A DNA stretch of 64,000 nucleotides from an uncultured bacterium (GCA_964384205.1 CAYLKS010000003.1:12337-76336), one strand, 5' to 3'; positions 39,335-47,829 are shown, counted from the first letter of the stretch. Notes: a model not told the origin generated them from the letters alone. Numbers and translations are program-made.

Positions 39335-40489
39335 TTATTTTTCTTTAGTTATATAAAACTTTTGAATCAATTTATCTATTCTTTTGACAACATCATTTTT
39401 TGATAATCCTATAGTCCTAACTAAAACATCTGATCCTCCAAACATCTTCAAGGCTTTAATTACTTTTTCTTTCTCAATAAGCTGTTCAAATACCATCATA
39501 ATTGGAATATTTCTCTCTTTTGCTTCATTAATCATATTAAGCCACTTTAATGAATCAAGTCCCCTCTTAACAGGATATAAACTGCTTATAAAAATATGTG
39601 GTGCAAATTTTATAATATGCACTCTTGCCTGGTCAGGATTATTAAAATATAATACATTATAATCATCTTTTATCAAATTATAAATACTATCTTTAATATC
39701 AAAAATTAAAATTCTATCATATTTTATAACTTCATTATCATTAACAGATGCACTATAAATAATTGGCTTAATATCCTTTTTCTCACTACTATGTTTCTCA
39801 GGAAAAGATTCCTTTAACAATTTCTTCTTTTCTTCTTTAGCTTGCTCCCTTAATTTATTGATAATAAAATCACTAATCTGTTTCTTAAAAACATTTTGAA
39901 TCTTTAAAAATTCTATACCTATTTTATATGAACTTACATTACGGATAATACATTCCTCAATTATAATATTAGAATTATCAATAAAAAAGAATAAATTATA
40001 TAACCTTCCTCCTGCTTTTAATTTATTATCAATTAATTGAATAGATGGTTTAAAAGCAAGCCCATTTTTACTTAAATCCATTAATTTCCCAATTTCAAAG
40101 GAATCTTCATCTTTGTGAAGCTCTCCAATCAATTTAAGATCTTCATCATTATAGTGAAATTTACTAAAATCTATCCGTACATCTCTTCTCTTAAAATGGA
40201 TACTATCTGGTATTTTAAAATAAAAAAATCCATCCTCTAAAGGTTTTATATTTGCAACAAAATTAAATAAATAACCTGAAAAGAAAAAAAATACTTCACC
40301 ATCAAATTTCTTATTAGGTAATTTACCAATAAATACTGTTATACTTTTTTTTTCAATACTATTTAACAAACCATAAAAAACTCTATCATTAATTTTTACT
40401 TCTATCTTTTCTCTTTGTTCCAGTAACTTCGAAAAAATTTTTATTATTTTTTCTTTATCTTTTATATTGCCAGCAATATCTTTTAACAT
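39335..40489 (-). CDS. PilZ-domain c-di-GMP receptor with degenerate C-terminal receiver domain
   Basis: KRRDVR (RxxxR-like) and MDLSKNGL (DxSxxG); C-terminal receiver-like fold lacking the acceptor Asp. Confidence 0.7.
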   Translation of the reverse strand: MLKDIAGNIKDKEKIIKIFSKLLEQREKIEVKINDRVFYGLLNSIEKKSITVFIGKLPNKKFDGEVFFFFSGYLFNFVANIKPLEDGFFYFKIPDSIHFKRRDVRIDFSKFHYNDEDLKLIGELHKDEDSFEIGKLMDLSKNGLAFKPSIQLIDNKLKAGGRLYNLFFFIDNSNIIIEECIIRNVSSYKIGIEFLKIQNVFKKQISDFIINKLREQAKEEKKKLLKESFPEKHSSEKKDIKPIIYSASVNDNEVIKYDRILIFDIKDSIYNLIKDDYNVLYFNNPDQARVHIIKFAPHIFISSLYPVKRGLDSLKWLNMINEAKERNIPIMMVFEQLIEKEKVIKALKMFGGSDVLVRTIGLSKNDVVKRIDKLIQKFYITKEK

Positions 40490-40536: not shown

Positions 40537-41718
40537 CTAAAAATCGCTATATAAATTCAAATTAATCTTTTTTAACACATTATAATTAATATTAAAATCT
40601 TTACTTTTTAAAAAAAGAGCTAACTCTCTATCATTCTTTTTAGAAAAAATATTATAATAAAAATTGACTTTATATAAATATAAAAGATCTTCCTTTATAC
40701 TCTCATATTTTTTATCTGAATGTAAATATTTATAATACAAAAACTGATCTCTAATAACATAATTTATACTTTTCTTCAAAGAATGCTCTCTAATTTTTAC
40801 AGGAATATTATACCAATGAGAAAGAAAATCATACACAGTAATTTTTATATCCTTCACCTCTGCTATCACAATATTATTAAACTTATCAATATTTTTCAAA
40901 TAATCTATCCCTAACGCATCTCTTCCAATTTCTTTCTTTTTCAATAATTCAAATACTATATTTCTTAAAATATCAATAGCTTCTGAATTAATATAAACAG
41001 AATCTCCATACAAAGAATCTATAACAAATTTATCCAATAAATAATCGCTCTTAAACCTTATATATCTTTTTAAATATTTTCCATACCTAACCTTAAAATC
41101 ATAATCTTTCTTAATAATATTATCTCTAACATTCAAAACTCGTATAATATAATAACCATTAATATCTCTCACCACTTTAGAATAACTTCCAACCTTCAAA
41201 TTATATAATATATTTTGCAAAATCGAAGACAAAATAGAAGGTTTCACCCATTCTAATTTATAATATTTTATATTTTTATTTAAATTTATATCATCAACAT
41301 TAAAAAAATGCTTACTTTGATAAACTTCTATTAAAAACTCTTTATTCTGGAAATCATAAAATTTAGCTACCGTACTGGAATCTGGTACAGGAATTTTTTC
41401 AATAAAATTCTCCTCAATATAATTTTGTAAAGATAATTCTATTTTCTTTGCTCTATAAAATAAATTTCCTATTGTATCAAAAGGGATAATATTTTGTAGT
41501 GAATCCGCAATATAAAACTTATATATCATAAATTTAGCAAATTCAACTCTTAATGAATCAGAATCCACTTTGTTACTGAACTGCAAATATCTAAAATAAT
41601 CTTCTTTAAATTGAGATTTAGTTATACAGTAATTTTTATATGAAATAATACAATCTTCTTCTATTGTTTTACCACAAAACAAAATAAAAAAAACAATAAA
41701 AATAAAAAAGAATTTCAT
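40537..41718 (-). CDS. PrsA/SurA-like foldase, predicted lipoprotein
   Basis: FILFC lipobox-like; SurA-N-like helices; degenerate parvulin segment LYNLKVGSYSKVV...GYYIIRV. Confidence 0.6.
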   Translation of the reverse strand: MKFFFIFIVFFILFCGKTIEEDCIISYKNYCITKSQFKEDYFRYLQFSNKVDSDSLRVEFAKFMIYKFYIADSLQNIIPFDTIGNLFYRAKKIELSLQNYIEENFIEKIPVPDSSTVAKFYDFQNKEFLIEVYQSKHFFNVDDINLNKNIKYYKLEWVKPSILSSILQNILYNLKVGSYSKVVRDINGYYIIRVLNVRDNIIKKDYDFKVRYGKYLKRYIRFKSDYLLDKFVIDSLYGDSVYINSEAIDILRNIVFELLKKKEIGRDALGIDYLKNIDKFNNIVIAEVKDIKITVYDFLSHWYNIPVKIREHSLKKSINYVIRDQFLYYKYLHSDKKYESIKEDLLYLYKVNFYYNIFSKKNDRELALFLKSKDFNINYNVLKKINLNLYSDF

Positions 41719-41721
41719 ATA

Positions 41722-44700
41722 CTATTTTAAATAAATAATCTTAAATGTTTGTTTATAGTTACCATTATTAAATAATATAAAATATATCCCTGAGGACAAT
41801 ATTTTAGAAGGAACAAATTTAAAGTCATATACTCCTTTATTAAAAAATCTATCTTCAAACAAAGTATATACCAAACGACCAGAAATATCATAAATTTTTA
41901 AATTAGATTTTGCCGACGTTTTAAAAAAACATCTAATATTTAATACATCAGAAAAAGGATTGGGAAAAACTTTTAATAAGTTCTGATATCTATCGTTATT
42001 AACAATAACATCTTTATTTAAAGAATAATAATTAATATTCCCACTATTATCATAAACCTTCAAATATATCTCTAAAAATAATGAATCAGGATTATGCAAA
42101 GAAGTAAAATCAAAAGATAATATCTCTCCAGATTGAGAAACTTCAGGAAAATCTTTAGACAATCGAGCAAAATTTATTAAAATACTATTAGGAGTTTCAT
42201 AATTTAAAACAAGAGGAAAAGAAACATCACTCTTTAATAATTTTTCAGCCTTTATATTGGCTATTTTTAACGAATCATTTAAAACTCTAATATATAATTC
42301 TCCCCCCATAATAGGTTTTTTGCCATTACTAAAAAGCCTGAACTTTTTAACCTGCTCTATCTCATCTATGTCATAATAAAAAGAATTATCATTTTTAAAT
42401 AATTTGTTTTTATCAAGATGAAAAAGAATCTCAAAATTACTACTATACCAGCTATACATTTTTGCAAAAGCAATAATATCATCTGCGTTAAAACTGCCAT
42501 TTGGCTTGGAATACATATACGGTGGATTATTGCCCTTCCAATATACAATAGGAGCAATATCAGCAATAGGATCCTGTACCCCATTTTTCCCATTCCATCC
42601 TCTAACAAAAAGTAAAATATCATTTCCATCTATACGACCATCAGGAAAAGGTCTCAGATGAGGAGGATCGCCATAATTAAAAGTCATACTATCTGAATTT
42701 GCGATGTCTCCAACCATAGCACCAAAAATCAATAAATGTTCAGCAGCTAAACCATCTTCTGGTTCATCCCCTGTAGTATAATTCTTCACAGTTGAGCTAT
42801 CCAAATTAACATACATAGCAGAAATAAAATATCTTTTGCTCCTATCAGTTGATAGATAATCAATAACATTTGAATCAACTTCTATATTCATATAAGCAAA
42901 AATCCCCTCTCTTGTTACACCTGTTAAAGAATTAAGAAGAGAGGTAGATATTTCAAATTTCCCAGATGAATTTATAGCATCAATAGAAGAATAAGTAAAA
43001 AACACTTGTCCACCTAAATTATATCTTTCAAAAATAGGACCTTGAGAAATAGAAACAACTCTATAATGTGAAGTATCAATATATCCTTTCAAGTTTAAGC
43101 TGACAATATCATCAGGTTTTTTCAAATAAAAAGCTATTTCTCTATTCTGAGAAAAATTATTAACAATAATTCTATTATCAAAATCTAATCCATCAACAAT
43201 CGCAAATGTAGTTAAATTAGTATCATTTATAATTAAACGATATTTGCTATATTTCGCTACCTCCTGCCCATAATCATCTTTTACTAATGCCCATATATAC
43301 CCTGTATCAGGAAAAGCACTTAAAGTATTACTTATCTTCCAAGTATAATAACCTTTAGTAGGATTAATAGAAGAGTCTATTAAAATTTCATCGCCAGATA
43401 ATACAATTTCTGAATTATTTGTGTCAGGGTCAAAATATAACTTCATGGTACAATTAGATAAATTATCATCTTTTATAGAATAATATATTCTAAATGTTGA
43501 ATGCGGAGCAATCAATATATCGGCAGTATCGTATGGTGCATCAGGAGTTATATAATTAATTTCCGGAAGGCTATTTATAATTCCCTGAAACTTAGTTATT
43601 CGAGCGCCTGAAGAAGAAGTATCTGCAACATATACATCCACTTTATCAAGACCAATTTCTCCTTTACAAACAGAGATAGCACGTGGCTTGTATAATTTAC
43701 CTACTGTAATATCTGTACCATCTGAGGGCTCTCCTATCTCTTTTATTAAAATAGGTTCTAAATCTAAAGAAGGGTCCAATGCCCCTACGTCATTAAAAAC
43801 TTTAACAACACCTGAAATACTATCAATTGCATATAAATAAACATCTGCATAATCAACTGTAGAGGTATTATATTTTTGATATCTAAAAATATCAAGATCT
43901 AATATAACCATACTATCTGCAAAAGTATACAAATAATTCAACCTATAAGCGCCAAGAGTATCTCCTGTCAAATAAAATTTATGAATACCAATAGAATCTG
44001 CAATATAAACATCAATATAACCAGTTAAATTATTTCTCCTTGCAGCAACTGCTCTTGGTATCTTAATAACAGGCATGGAATGACTTGCAGCATAAGAACT
44101 ATCATATTGAAAAATATCCACTGAAACATAGGACTTTATTGTCAATGTTGAATCTGCTGGCGGAACCCACCCATGAATACCATTGCCAAAAAGAACTCTC
44201 GAAGAGAATCTATCAAAAGTATAAACTTTTGCAGTACTATCATATTTTTCCAAATCATCAACCTGAGTAAAAAGCTCAGAACCAACATACACAGTAATAG
44301 AGTCTAATTTTGCATATTCCCCATATGGAGATTCATTTATATAAAAACTCTGATTTGCAACACCTCCTCTCAATGTACCATTATAAGTCTGAGGGCCTGC
44401 AAAACTTAATTTGCCATCAGAATCAGCATTTCCATTAATAATCAATACTCTTTTTTTTGACCGATCACAGATAAATCCCATAACATCATTATGATTTGTA
44501 GAACCTATAAAATAAATATCTTCTGTTGTATCAATATAAGAACGATATCTATAATCATTACTTGATGGTGTCAAAGTAGACAACTCTGATTCATAGTCAA
44601 CATTATCAACCTTCAAAATATCTGATAATAATGTATTAGTAGGTCCTATCCTATCTGCTAAATACACATTAACATTAGAATTATCTACAGTCCCTGTATC

Positions 44701-45381
44701 CTGTGGCACAATTGAAATACTTTTTAAATAATTAAAACTACCATTTATTGAAGTTAACGTATTGCTAACTGCAGAACTATCCTCATAAAGTAAATATGTT
44801 TCAATTTTTACATCTGTAGTAGTCAATTGAGCTGCATTACCACCACCAAATAAAAATATCCCTTTATCCTTATCCAGAACATAATGATGTGCACCACTTG
44901 CAGAAGAATTAAAATTAGCAACTTCGCTCCATAACGCTCCATTAACATAAACATTTGTAGAATTATCTAAAATATCAAATTTGCTCAAATTTTTATCAAA
45001 ATAAATAAGATATACTGTATCTATTCCAGAATTATTTATAATAATTTCTAATGAATCGACAATGGGAGTATTCTCATTATCGCTATTAGTCAATATACCA
45101 CTATAAACAACCTGCATTCTAAACATGCTTGTCTTTGCTCGCCCCGCATCATTACAAAAAATCACAGGAGTTGCTATAGTAGAAGATGTTATATAATCAA
45201 TAACAACATCAAGTCCTGTTATATTTTTAAAAACTTCATTCTGATGCGCTATTGAAAAATACTTCCCATTATAAAAAACATCCCCATTAAACCATAAAAC
45301 AGGCTTATATGACACACTTACTTGAGAATAAACTATATTTAAAAATATCAACAGACAAAAAAGTATTTTATAAATTTTCAT
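41722..45381 (-). CDS. Large secreted multidomain protein: NHL-like propeller, baseplate-like inserts, cohesin-like, dockerin-like, Por/FlgD-type C-terminal sorting domain
   Basis: Signal peptide ending YSQ; repeated VYLAD/VYIAD/VYVAD blades with PRAVA/PRAIS; GD...DGRIDGND EF-hand-like loops; C-terminus FPNPFS...KIYDISGRLV...LSSGIYFI...K. Confidence 0.75.
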   Translation of the reverse strand: MKIYKILFCLLIFLNIVYSQVSVSYKPVLWFNGDVFYNGKYFSIAHQNEVFKNITGLDVVIDYITSSTIATPVIFCNDAGRAKTSMFRMQVVYSGILTNSDNENTPIVDSLEIIINNSGIDTVYLIYFDKNLSKFDILDNSTNVYVNGALWSEVANFNSSASGAHHYVLDKDKGIFLFGGGNAAQLTTTDVKIETYLLYEDSSAVSNTLTSINGSFNYLKSISIVPQDTGTVDNSNVNVYLADRIGPTNTLLSDILKVDNVDYESELSTLTPSSNDYRYRSYIDTTEDIYFIGSTNHNDVMGFICDRSKKRVLIINGNADSDGKLSFAGPQTYNGTLRGGVANQSFYINESPYGEYAKLDSITVYVGSELFTQVDDLEKYDSTAKVYTFDRFSSRVLFGNGIHGWVPPADSTLTIKSYVSVDIFQYDSSYAASHSMPVIKIPRAVAARRNNLTGYIDVYIADSIGIHKFYLTGDTLGAYRLNYLYTFADSMVILDLDIFRYQKYNTSTVDYADVYLYAIDSISGVVKVFNDVGALDPSLDLEPILIKEIGEPSDGTDITVGKLYKPRAISVCKGEIGLDKVDVYVADTSSSGARITKFQGIINSLPEINYITPDAPYDTADILIAPHSTFRIYYSIKDDNLSNCTMKLYFDPDTNNSEIVLSGDEILIDSSINPTKGYYTWKISNTLSAFPDTGYIWALVKDDYGQEVAKYSKYRLIINDTNLTTFAIVDGLDFDNRIIVNNFSQNREIAFYLKKPDDIVSLNLKGYIDTSHYRVVSISQGPIFERYNLGGQVFFTYSSIDAINSSGKFEISTSLLNSLTGVTREGIFAYMNIEVDSNVIDYLSTDRSKRYFISAMYVNLDSSTVKNYTTGDEPEDGLAAEHLLIFGAMVGDIANSDSMTFNYGDPPHLRPFPDGRIDGNDILLFVRGWNGKNGVQDPIADIAPIVYWKGNNPPYMYSKPNGSFNADDIIAFAKMYSWYSSNFEILFHLDKNKLFKNDNSFYYDIDEIEQVKKFRLFSNGKKPIMGGELYIRVLNDSLKIANIKAEKLLKSDVSFPLVLNYETPNSILINFARLSKDFPEVSQSGEILSFDFTSLHNPDSLFLEIYLKVYDNSGNINYYSLNKDVIVNNDRYQNLLKVFPNPFSDVLNIRCFFKTSAKSNLKIYDISGRLVYTLFEDRFFNKGVYDFKFVPSKILSSGIYFILFNNGNYKQTFKIIYLK

Positions 45382-45456: not shown

Positions 45457-46086
45457 TTAAAACACAGAGATTAAAATTCCAATCTCATAAGATATAAAAT
45501 CAATATTAGAATATCTACTAGGAGTATAAATTTTAGAATAATGAATTTCAACATAAGGTTCAAAAGGAATAAACATCAACTTAAATCTTGAGCCTACAAC
45601 AGCATCAACACCATAAGATGAATCAAAATCAGAAAAATCTACATATTTCCTTAACTGTTCAATAGCCGGAATTACTGTTTTAGACTCGAAATCTAAATCA
45701 TATTTTCCAATCCCAAGCCCTGCATACGGCACTATTGGAATCAATGGAACACTTAATTTAAATTTACCATGGAATACATAAGATTTTATAGTTAAGTCAA
45801 ATTTTTGCCTAAAATCCATATTAAGAATATCTAATTCTAACATAAATGATTTTTTTATATATGAAGAAGAAAAATCAAAATCAAAAAAAGGTAACCCTGT
45901 AAACATTATTTTCCCATTATATTGTATACCTTTTATATCTACTAATTTAAAATTATCATAATATGTAGCTCCCTTATATGATGAATTACTTATGCCAAAA
46001 CCTGCCTTTATACCTAATATTGCATAATTATCTGATGTTAAAAACAAAACTCCAAAGACTATCCATAAATACAAATTTCTTTTCAT
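45457..46086 (-). CDS. Outer-membrane beta-barrel protein (OmpW/porin-like, ~8 strands)
   Basis: Signal peptide, GIKAG first strand, PYAGLGIG, alternating aromatic strands, terminal Phe; SD AGGAG. Confidence 0.75.
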   Translation of the reverse strand: MKRNLYLWIVFGVLFLTSDNYAILGIKAGFGISNSSYKGATYYDNFKLVDIKGIQYNGKIMFTGLPFFDFDFSSSYIKKSFMLELDILNMDFRQKFDLTIKSYVFHGKFKLSVPLIPIVPYAGLGIGKYDLDFESKTVIPAIEQLRKYVDFSDFDSSYGVDAVVGSRFKLMFIPFEPYVEIHYSKIYTPSRYSNIDFISYEIGILISVF

Positions 46087-46416: not shown

Positions 46417-46444
46417 TAGCATAGGGGATCCCCTATGCTATTAT
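46413..46444. terminator. Perfect 32-bp palindrome between convergent stop codons (bidirectional terminator candidate)
   Basis: ATAATAGCATAGGGGATCCCCTATGCTATTAT; includes the TAA of rpmB and the TAA of the radical SAM gene at its two ends. Confidence 0.7.
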
Positions 46445-47829
46445 TCTGTATATTTGTAAATTGAGTCTTTAAAGTTAGATAATTCATATTGGATTTTTGC
46501 TTTTTTAATAGATTCAAAAGAGTAATTGATATTTAATTTTGATAGTTCTTTACGCAATTTTTGATATTGTTTTTTCAACACTTTTACATCTGCAAAAGGA
46601 TTATTTTCAAAAGGTGTTTTCTTCTTTGGAATAAAAGGATTAATAGATACCGAAATGCTTTTATCAAAATATTTTTTACTTTTTTCCAGAAACCTTATAA
46701 TCTTATTTTCTTCATCACTAAAACCAAAACCAATCATAAAATAATAACGAATTTTTTTTACTCCTGTTAATCTATTTATTAATTCCAGAGCATGAAATAA
46801 TTTTTCATCATCAAATTTTTTATTCAATTTATATCTATCCTCCTGACTTCCTGTTTCTGGAGCAAAAGTAATTGTGAACATATTATGCTTATCTATTAAA
46901 TAACATAATTCTTCATCTACAATCTCCGGTCTCAATGAAGAAAGACTTACAGTTTTATGCAAACTTAAAATATATTCTAAAATTTCTTTTAAATCAGGAT
47001 AAAAACCCAATGATGATGCCAAAAGCCCAATTTTTTCAACTTTTCTTAAATCTAAATTCTCTAACAATTCAATAATTTTATTTTTTCTAATAAAAATAGG
47101 ATATTTTTTCAAATAAGATGCTGCACAAAAGAAACAAAAAGAAGGACATCCCCTGCCAATCTCTATTAATAAATTACTTTTAAAATAACTCATAGAAGTT
47201 ATAATAGGAGAAAAAGGAATTAAGTCCATCTTTTTATTAACTTTAAATTTCTTCTCCTTAGAAAATTTTGAATAAATATTGTCCTTTTGAGAAATAGCCT
47301 CTATAAATTCAAATTTACTAATATTCCCTTGAATATCAAAAATACTTTTCAGATTTTGTAAAAAAATCTCAACCTCTCCAGCAACAACAAAATCAACAAA
47401 ATCAAGCAATATATCAGGAAATAAAGAAATAGCAATACCACCTGCAAAAATTATTGGGAAATTATCATCCCTATCTTTAGCTAAAAGAGGGATATTATTT
47501 AGCTTCAAAATATCGATAAAATTTAGATAATCTAATTCATAAGAAAAATGAAAAGCAATCATATCATATTTTGACCAATGCTGGCCAGTTTCTAATGAAA
47601 CTAAAGGGTCAGAAAAATCCCAAACAGCTCTATGACAACTAATAAACTCAATAGAATTTAGCTGGAAATAAACAAATTGCCATGCCAGAGAACTTATAGC
47701 AACTTTATAAAAATTAGGATAGACAAATAAAATTTTTATTGAACCTTTATTATAATTTACATCAGAAATTAAGGACTCCCGTTTTAATAATTCAAAACGA
47801 GAGCCCTTATTCAGGCAAGGACGGAGCAT
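46441..47829 (-). CDS. B12-binding-domain radical SAM protein
   Basis: YPNFY..AISSL, FAGG, GEVE, EIGRGCPSFCFFC (CxxxCxxC), FAPETGS, YFMIG, FIPK..TPF. Confidence 0.85.
   Translation of the reverse strand: MLRPCLNKGSRFELLKRESLISDVNYNKGSIKILFVYPNFYKVAISSLAWQFVYFQLNSIEFISCHRAVWDFSDPLVSLETGQHWSKYDMIAFHFSYELDYLNFIDILKLNNIPLLAKDRDDNFPIIFAGGIAISLFPDILLDFVDFVVAGEVEIFLQNLKSIFDIQGNISKFEFIEAISQKDNIYSKFSKEKKFKVNKKMDLIPFSPIITSMSYFKSNLLIEIGRGCPSFCFFCAASYLKKYPIFIRKNKIIELLENLDLRKVEKIGLLASSLGFYPDLKEILEYILSLHKTVSLSSLRPEIVDEELCYLIDKHNMFTITFAPETGSQEDRYKLNKKFDDEKLFHALELINRLTGVKKIRYYFMIGFGFSDEENKIIRFLEKSKKYFDKSISVSINPFIPKKKTPFENNPFADVKVLKKQYQKLRKELSKLNINYSFESIKKAKIQYELSNFKDSIYKYTE

Follow-up and report, generated by a model that had tools for sequence, protein, structure and literature searches.

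Two segments of a 1219-residue protein that is encoded on the reverse strand at positions 41722-45381 of a 64,000-nucleotide stretch of DNA from an uncultured bacterium (GCA_964384205.1, CAYLKS010000003.1:12337-76336; the whole stretch is hereafter called the window, and positions are counted from its first letter) are, by sequence and by predicted fold, true homologues of the beta-domain of the gp6-like baseplate wedge proteins. This domain had so far been recorded only within solved structures of baseplate wedge proteins, as a part without a name, and no model covers it in the Pfam copy that was searched (newest models 2025). Here, we have compared the two segments, and the protein in which they are found, with known families, structures and metagenomic sequences; we consider it fairly probable that the protein is a surface protein with an NHL-type propeller, exported by a type IX secretion system (T9SS), in which two wedge-type modules that are not specific to baseplates act as interaction surfaces or struts, and that it is no part of a contractile injection system (CIS).

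A sequence-only reading of the window had placed two baseplate-like segments at positions 44130-44970, which correspond to residues 138-418 of the 1219-residue open reading frame (ORF). Both segments lie in this ORF and all of the peptides quoted for them have been found in it exactly: VYVNG...FLFGGG at residues 144-181 (positions 44839-44952), GGVANQSFYINE at residues 339-350 (44332-44367) and ITVYVG...TIKSY at residues 362-418 (44128-44298). We refer to the first segment and the second segment, counted from the N-terminus, as copy 1 and copy 2.

When each segment is scanned alone against the 18950 models of NCBIfam, the sole family that is matched is TIGR02243, “putative baseplate assembly protein”, at profile positions 392-429 and 392-440 of 659; copy 1 alone matches positions 392-429 with an E-value (E) of 0.002, and the two segments scanned jointly match in 2 stretches with E 1.1e-5. 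BLASTP also relates the copies to one another (E 1e-4, 28% identity over 60 aa). A phmmer search with residues 21-640 against 1.84 billion representative proteins has returned 24 matches at E <= 0.001, the query protein itself (P0001) included, among which are the Baseplate_J proteins P0003 (E 6.5e-15), P0005 (1.7e-8) and P0006 (3.2e-8). The segments have no match in Pfam or PHROGs, and a word-indexed homolog search with residues 1-640 gave no match; the same is true of a 76-column domain profile searched against 5.8 billion sequences with an E limit of 1e-5, a limit that is too strict for so short a profile.

An alignment of 30 sequences of the domain (A2) delimits a unit of about 85 aa, in which W, Y.xD, FG.G..G..P and Y are nearly invariant. 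In the Protein Data Bank (PDB), the A2 profile matches Cis11 of the Streptomyces coelicolor CIS (9gtp_1K, residues 306-395, E 4.8e-8) and BplA of phage P1 (9ay5_Y, residues 167-230, E 2.2e-5); a profile that was rebuilt, as a control, from an alignment free of any baseplate sequence (A3) matches the same two proteins (BplA, 5.4e-5; Cis11, 3e-4). The motif that BplA, Cis11, TIGR02243 and PF04865 proteins share over this domain, G.xxQxF...V.V....W..V..L....D..Y.LD...G.I.FGDG.HG..PP.G..I...Y, has its full counterpart in copy 2, as NQxF...W/FxxV...Y.FD...FGNGIHGxxPP...Y, and the loop FGDGxHGxxPP of copy 2 is kept throughout the surface-protein family that is described below (P0002-P0018). Copy 1 is divergent and its loop is lost family-wide, being reduced to FLFGGGNAAQL in the window protein and to IxFPAGSL in relatives with high GC, and the constraints on the two copies probably differ. 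Two other groups of matches were rejected. De novo designed TIM barrels (the sTIM11 family; 7a8s_A, 6yqy_A, 5bvl_A and relatives) occur among the A2 and A3 profile matches, and we regard them as spurious, because no stretch of these chains is matched significantly, and their low whole-sequence E-values arise from one designed peptide that is matched four times, each time below threshold. Phospholipase B-like proteins, from a phmmer comparison of the whole protein with the PDB that found nothing else, are chance matches.

The AlphaFold2 (AF2) model of copy 2, calculated with the A2 alignment, is a six-strand beta-domain (predicted local distance difference test, pLDDT, 82; predicted TM-score, pTM, 0.73). 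In a Foldseek search of the PDB with this model, P1 baseplate chains are at the top (9vzk_T, 9ay5_0 and 9vzk_Y; query TM-score, TMq, 0.68-0.72), the S. coelicolor CIS baseplate 9gtp ranks next (TMq 0.65-0.66), T4 gp6 is a weak match (5iv5_A; probability 0.51, TMq 0.49), and all remaining, non-baseplate matches have E 0.09 or worse. Against BFVD, the top 19 matches have probability 1.00 and TMq 0.54-0.77; 11 of them are annotated as myovirus baseplate wedge or baseplate J-like proteins, and the rest are nameless. In the AF2 model of residues 21-640, copy 1 adopts the strand pattern of copy 2, with pLDDT about 77-86. The outcome to which the sequence-only reading had tied its own refutation, i.e. 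segments that model as ordinary Ig domains or propeller blades, is not what was found, as the copy 2 model matches baseplate proteins instead, and the baseplate-wedge-like pattern that it had noticed is borne out in agreement by TIGR02243, phmmer, the profiles and AF2/Foldseek. Its proposed comparison with gp6 and Afp11 structures holds in part: the likeness to BplA and Cis11 is firm, that to T4 gp6 is weak, and Afp11 and Pvc11 structures are absent among the fold and profile matches.

The two copies are situated within a region that resembles an NHL propeller. A full-length alignment of the window protein with seven relatives (A4; P0002, P0004, P0008, P0011, P0015, P0016 and P0018) yields a profile that matches the NHL structures of TRIM71, Thin and TRIM2/3 with E down to 1.7e-10, and these matches flank the inserts, at profile positions 64-101 (TRIM71; before copy 1) and 556-666 (after copy 2). 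Pfam NHL matches of the relatives map to residues 72-87 (P0018) and residues 457-469 (P0016, P0011 and P0008) of the window protein, which is itself too divergent to be matched by Pfam NHL; the blade repeats are seen at family level, in the A4 profile, in the Pfam NHL matches of the relatives and in the propeller-like model. The AF2 model of residues 21-640 is all-beta (pLDDT 64, pTM 0.69) and is matched by Foldseek to six-bladed propellers; in our interpretation of this model, copy 1 would separate blade 1 from blade 2, and copy 2 would separate blade 3 from blade 4. As NHL motifs precede copy 1 and follow copy 2, the earlier suggestion that the segments interrupt an NHL-like propeller is upheld.

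A signal peptide and a C-terminal sorting domain had also been reported from the sequence, and both descriptions stand: the N-terminus reads as a Sec signal, a call that is made by inspection, and the sorting domain scores above the curated cutoffs of PF18962 (38.1 bits; cutoff 27) and TIGR04183 (39.5 bits; cutoff 23). The C-terminal half is made up of an Ig-like region, a module that resembles the GC-type dockerin and the sorting domain, and cohesin-like modules are seen at this end in relatives. At residues ~909-975, NF041540 (dockerin_GC) scores 28.5 bits (E 1.5e-6), just missing its cutoff of 29, and is matched by six of the eight family members; Pfam finds no cohesin or Ig family in the C-terminal half of the window protein. 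No genes of the T9SS machinery (PorK/L/M/N, Sov, PorU/V) have been seen in the window.

The same architecture, which the sequence-only reading had proposed to look for elsewhere, has been found in a family of NHL-propeller surface proteins with both inserts, represented among the phmmer matches by P0002, P0004, P0008, P0011, P0012, P0015, P0016, P0018 and P0019. Its members combine a twice-interrupted NHL propeller with a dockerin_GC-like module and a sorting domain, and cohesin occurs in relatives. The relatives in A4 are 20-29% identical overall to the window protein and collinear with it end to end, with both copies at conserved positions, and their genomes range from 26% GC to high-GC; because both copies occupy identical positions at such low identity, we regard the insertions as ancient and maintained. 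The closest relative, the ortholog P0025, is 48% identical, also collinear end to end, and keeps both copies. A word-indexed search with the full-length family profile has returned only the window protein and one ortholog, the other matches being to the C-terminal domain (CTD), and the sole genome that was found in a scan for family genomes is that of the ortholog, binchicken_co113_61, a metagenome-assembled genome of an uncultured bacterium.

The comparison with the gp6-like wedge proteins shows how little else is shared. The accessory beta-domain is present in two copies, that of copy 1 with a degenerate loop; unlike the wedge proteins, the window protein is without the N-terminal core-bundle helix, the trifurcation or Baseplate_J part and the dimerisation domain. 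A signal peptide followed by propeller strands is found where wedge proteins have their helical core bundle, and Ig-like, dockerin-like and CTD regions make up the C-terminal half, whereas in true wedge members Baseplate_J directly follows the domain copies. TIGR02243 scores 19.9-24.2 bits on the window protein, against a cutoff of 155.8, and covers only positions 392-440 of 659, and PF04865 (Baseplate_J) does not match it even at E up to 10. The protein further differs from wedge proteins in its signal peptide, its propeller, its T9SS sorting domain and its location outside any tail or CIS cluster. All window ORFs of at least 120-150 aa were read, and the unclear ones were scanned; sheath, tube, gp25, spike and Baseplate_J genes are not present in the 64-kb window, and no CIS genes have been found in the 23.7 kb around the ortholog; the statement of the sequence-only reading that no tail, sheath or tube genes lie nearby is upheld.

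Other known systems resemble individual parts of the protein. The NHL propellers of TRIM71, TRIM2/3, Thin and the PknD sensor domain are similar in blade profile and in predicted propeller fold, but the window protein is extracellular and bacterial and has two whole domains between its blades. T9SS type A cargo, such as gingipains and SprB-type adhesins, has the CTD, the signal peptide and the large multi-domain build in common with it, and no similarity beyond the CTD. Cohesin-dockerin scaffolds (of the cellulosome type, and the GC-type dockerin-anchored proteins of NF041540) have a possible counterpart in the dockerin_GC-like module and in the Cohesin matches of relatives at aligned positions; the scores, however, are at or below the curated cutoffs, and the window protein has no cohesin match. 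Enzymes that resemble glycoside hydrolase family 51 (GH51) carry the same inserted domain, but in a TIM-barrel, glycosidase-like host and in one copy, not two.

The distribution of the domain is broad. Four of the matched proteins (P0003, P0005, P0006 and P0014) have an N-terminus of the TIGR02243 type, followed by the domain in 3-6 tandem copies and next by Pfam Baseplate_J, and P0022 has two copies followed by Tail_P2_I; no Pfam model covers these tandem repeats. The tandem arrays have a period of about 90 aa, with 5 copies in P0003 (residues 316-780), 3 in P0006, 3 in P0005, up to 6 in P0014 and 2 in P0022. In the GH51/alpha-L-arabinofuranosidase-like proteins P0007, P0009, P0010, P0017, P0020, P0023 and P0024, one copy is located directly after the motif WEVGNE (e.g. 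residues 252-326 of P0009), and two further phmmer matches, P0013 and P0021, are proteins of no recognised type. In a metagenome sample, contigs were scanned for the DNA pattern encoding FG[DN]GxHGxxPP, which gave at least 120 stretches. Among the matches listed, 104 of 121 pattern-bearing ORFs match the hidden Markov model of the domain, many with E 1e-15 to 1e-30; when the domain is masked, 45 of the 104 are Baseplate_J-like, 10 GH51-like, 2 NHL-surface and 47 unclassified. In several large unclassified ORFs, about 300 aa separate the domain from the C-terminus; these ORFs are probably divergent wedge proteins, because one of them has a weak Baseplate_J match. About ten ORFs, roughly 105-175 residues from stop to stop, consist of the domain as a stand-alone protein; one of these, in L014, has 127 aa from its first ATG, and its gene is flanked by bestrophin-like, multihaem cytochrome, extracytoplasmic function (ECF) sigma and CcmE genes, which is not a CIS cluster.

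Among these stand-alone ORFs, those in L014 (4069-4452, forward strand), L029, L089, L077, L016, L066 and L028 are roughly 105-130 residues from stop to stop, and the motifs YRTGxGxxGN and LWVAIRNRT follow the domain in L014, L029, L089 and L077, and less clearly in L016.

Wherever the wedge-type domain was seen, it is either built into another scaffold or attached to one: it follows the N-terminal region and precedes Baseplate_J in wedge proteins, and it lies in a TIM-barrel loop of the GH51-like enzymes and between the propeller blades in the surface proteins. Its presence in GH51-like enzymes and in stand-alone proteins marks it as a promiscuous module, not as a marker of contractile machinery. 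The nearest sequences to copy 2, next to that of the ortholog, are the GH51-like inserts (38-45% identity); the copies in baseplate proteins and the second copy in the high-GC members of the family are less similar. The identities between classes (0.23-0.40) are too flat to give the direction of transfer, from baseplate to cell or the reverse.

On this basis, we propose that the protein would be exported by Sec and then by the T9SS to the cell surface. Its N-terminal half is a roughly six-bladed NHL-type propeller with two spliced-in beta-sandwich domains of about 85 aa, an architecture that is shown or well supported. The inserted copies may be protruding interaction surfaces, for protein or glycan, or rigid struts on an adhesin or scaffold, and the C-terminal half would tether the protein to the surface and possibly link partners in an assembly of the cohesin-dockerin type. 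An adhesin or scaffold is what we favour because all the other features of wedge proteins are missing and the family is old and conserved; most likely, the domain is a promiscuous insertion module that is used as an interaction surface on such a protein. A role in protein interaction or as a strut is favoured because residues E152, K160 and R189 of P1 BplA, which lie within or beside the domain, contact partner wedge subunits (bioRxiv 10.1101/2025.07.21.665459). Two further domains of the literature are possible equivalents of the wedge-type domain: the “wing” domain that is inserted in diffocin Tri2 and T4 gp6 (PMC10996793), and “domain III” of Alg11, the tip of which carries a cage insertion and onto which carbohydrate-binding modules are grafted in AlgoCIS (PMC8894135). 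The “baseplate wedge” GP075 of phage K8, which was followed from a host-range paper as a receptor-binding lead, is a 243-aa DUF2612 protein with a different domain.

The GH51 context leads us to weigh a role in glycan binding, in which the inserts would be candidate glycan-binding modules, the protein would be a carbohydrate-binding adhesin or an enzyme accessory, and the baseplate copies would touch surface glycans. We regard this as unlikely, but worth serious consideration: the position directly after the WEVGNE motif, where the GH51-like enzymes carry the domain, is the catalytic face of the GH51 barrel, and it is to these inserts that copy 2, the ortholog aside, is most similar. The carbohydrate-binding modules at the tip of Alg11 domain III in AlgoCIS would point the same way, if that domain is equivalent to the wedge-type one. 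Foldseek, on the other hand, gives no significant match to any known carbohydrate-binding module, its non-baseplate matches having E 0.09 or worse, the conserved residues of the domain look structural (a Gly/Pro loop and core aromatics), and the corresponding region in P1 makes protein-protein contacts. That the wedge-type domains engage or mimic contractile machinery, as a docking site, a decoy or a baseplate-like ring, or, in a milder form, that they are an overlooked glycan-contacting element in baseplates, has in our judgement a small chance of being right.

The sequence-only reading had favoured a domesticated baseplate module, used for baseplate-like surface assembly or to decoy or dock a phage tail or an injection system encoded elsewhere, and had ranked the segments as its best candidate for a new system. 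We see a very small chance for such a module, and no evidence has come up in support of a decoy or docking site. The homology to wedge proteins is real, the CTD would place the protein on the cell exterior, and copy 2 keeps its FGxGxHGxxPP loop across the whole family; yet the core-bundle helix, Baseplate_J, the dimerisation domain and the gp7, gp25 and gp53 partners are lacking, TIGR02243 reaches 24 bits against 155.8, CIS genes are found neither in the 64 kb nor at the ortholog locus, and the domain, which enzymes and stand-alone proteins without a relation to CIS carry as well, is, to our knowledge, not a ligand of any tail component. The claim of a new system is likewise unsupported, as every other gp6/Baseplate_J feature is missing, and what has been found is a conserved family of the T9SS type without conserved neighbourhoods, whose inserted domain is found in enzymes and stand-alone proteins as well. 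Slighter again is the chance that the segments derive from a prophage or CIS baseplate gene, as its remnant or by fusion, i.e. a recent, accidental and functionless capture: Baseplate_J-like proteins are indeed the most frequent among the sampled occurrences (45 among the matches listed), but both copies are at identical positions in relatives that are 20-29% identical and range from 26%-GC to high-GC, the ORF is intact and no other phage genes are nearby. As for a chance resemblance of ordinary Ig-like domains or propeller blades, the lack of Pfam and PHROGs matches for the segments and the weak single-copy TIGR02243 scores (13-17 bits) could be read in its favour; but the exhaustive phmmer search reaches a Baseplate_J protein with E 6.5e-15, profile and fold comparisons match baseplate proteins independently, and the AF2 confidence for copy 2 is high. 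This leaves the reading with next to no chance, and we consider it refuted.

Our preferred reading of the protein, as an exported propeller-bearing adhesin or scaffold outside any CIS, has several points against it. The gene scan covers 64 kb of the source genome, and a CIS may be encoded elsewhere in it; the AF2 model of residues 21-640 is only moderately confident (pLDDT 64), and it is only from its secondary structure that we have read the blade assignment and the apparent nearness of the domain termini. For the dockerin-like region, NF041540 scores just below the curated cutoff and a profile search of the PDB gives no dockerin, and Cohesin is matched by Pfam only in the relatives P0016 (E 1.3e-13) and P0008 (E 1.8e-4) and not in the window protein. 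The proportions in the metagenome sample are biased, being anchored on FG[DN]GxHGxxPP (at least 120 stretches), and the surface-protein family is known from sequences and models alone.

The comparison thus describes an uncatalogued mobile domain that is found in the baseplates of phages and CIS, in glycosidase-like enzymes, in surface proteins with an NHL propeller and in very small stand-alone proteins. For annotation, it means that the motif alone is insufficient to call a gene “baseplate” or “eCIS” (extracellular CIS); for the structural biology of CIS, that the accessory domain of the wedge may serve generally as a module for binding or insertion. The analysis also flags a conserved, uncharacterised family of T9SS-type surface proteins of uncultured bacteria, and it reveals no new injection or defence system.

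The features of the gene and of its closest neighbours are listed in the following table.

Table. Features of the gene for the 1219-residue protein and of the adjoining genes, in window coordinates
Feature	Position	Strand	Basis
Whole gene: 1219-aa secreted multi-domain surface protein	41722..45381	-	ORF list; collinearity with the ortholog P0025 and with the family
Signal peptide, aa 1-20, MKIYKILFCLLIFLNIVYSQ	45322..45381	-	Direct reading: basic N-terminus, hydrophobic core, small polar end
NHL blade motif preceding copy 1, aa 72-87, PVIFCNDAGRAKTSMF	45121..45168	-	Aligns with the Pfam NHL match of P0018, residues 92-107
Wedge-type beta-domain copy 1, aa 108-199	44785..45060	-	TIGR02243, BLASTP to copy 2, AF2, conservation
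Predicted propeller blades 2-3 between the inserts, aa ~215-310	44452..44739	-	All-beta sets of four strands, AF2 model (aa 21-640); blade numbers assigned by us from the list of strands
Wedge-type beta-domain copy 2, aa 334-422	44116..44382	-	AF2, Foldseek, profile match to 9gtp_1K
Predicted NHL propeller blades 4-6, aa 444-601	43579..44052	-	A4 profile; Pfam NHL of relatives; AF2 pLDDT 70-90 here
Tentative cohesin-like-aligned region, aa 757-842	42856..43113	-	Alignment to the Pfam Cohesin match of P0008, residues 890-973, E 1.8e-4
GC-type dockerin-like module, aa 886-980, two D-G-x-I-D/N-x-x-D loops	42442..42726	-	NCBIfam NF041540
Tentative second cohesin-like-aligned region, aa 1005-1102	42076..42369	-	Alignment to the Pfam Cohesin match of P0016, residues 1127-1230, E 1.3e-13
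T9SS type A C-terminal sorting domain, aa 1138-1216	41734..41970	-	PF18962, TIGR04183
Outer membrane protein (OMP)-like ORF, 209 aa, without Pfam match	45457-46086	-	
Radical SAM gene directly after ftsZ	46441-47829	-	
PpiC-type peptidyl-prolyl isomerase (PPIase), start 3 bp past the end of the 1219-aa ORF	40537-41718	-	
PilZ-like protein	39335-40489	-	

The window is ordinary chromosome, with a very low GC content (~21-35%). Upstream of the gene is the dcw cluster (mraZ, rsmH, ftsL, ftsI, murF, ftsW, ftsQ, ftsA and ftsZ), followed by the radical SAM gene and the small OMP-like ORF; the PpiC-type PPIase and the PilZ-like protein are downstream, and SecDF, AspRS, LpxK, heptosyltransferases and similar housekeeping genes are located elsewhere in the window. 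The gene may form an operon with its four same-strand flanking ORFs. Most genes are on the reverse strand, and in only one of the 2-kb segments of the 64 kb is the GC skew not negative.

This neighbourhood is not conserved at the ortholog locus, where LptF/G, PGI, glycogen synthase, a PHP protein and two further T9SS/dockerin proteins are encoded nearby, an arrangement that suggests a cluster of T9SS surface proteins. At this locus (L001, 15090-21662), two large secreted proteins of 999 aa and 1187 aa are encoded downstream, beyond the PHP-domain gene, and the 999-aa protein has weak Dockerin_1 and Por_Secre_tail matches.

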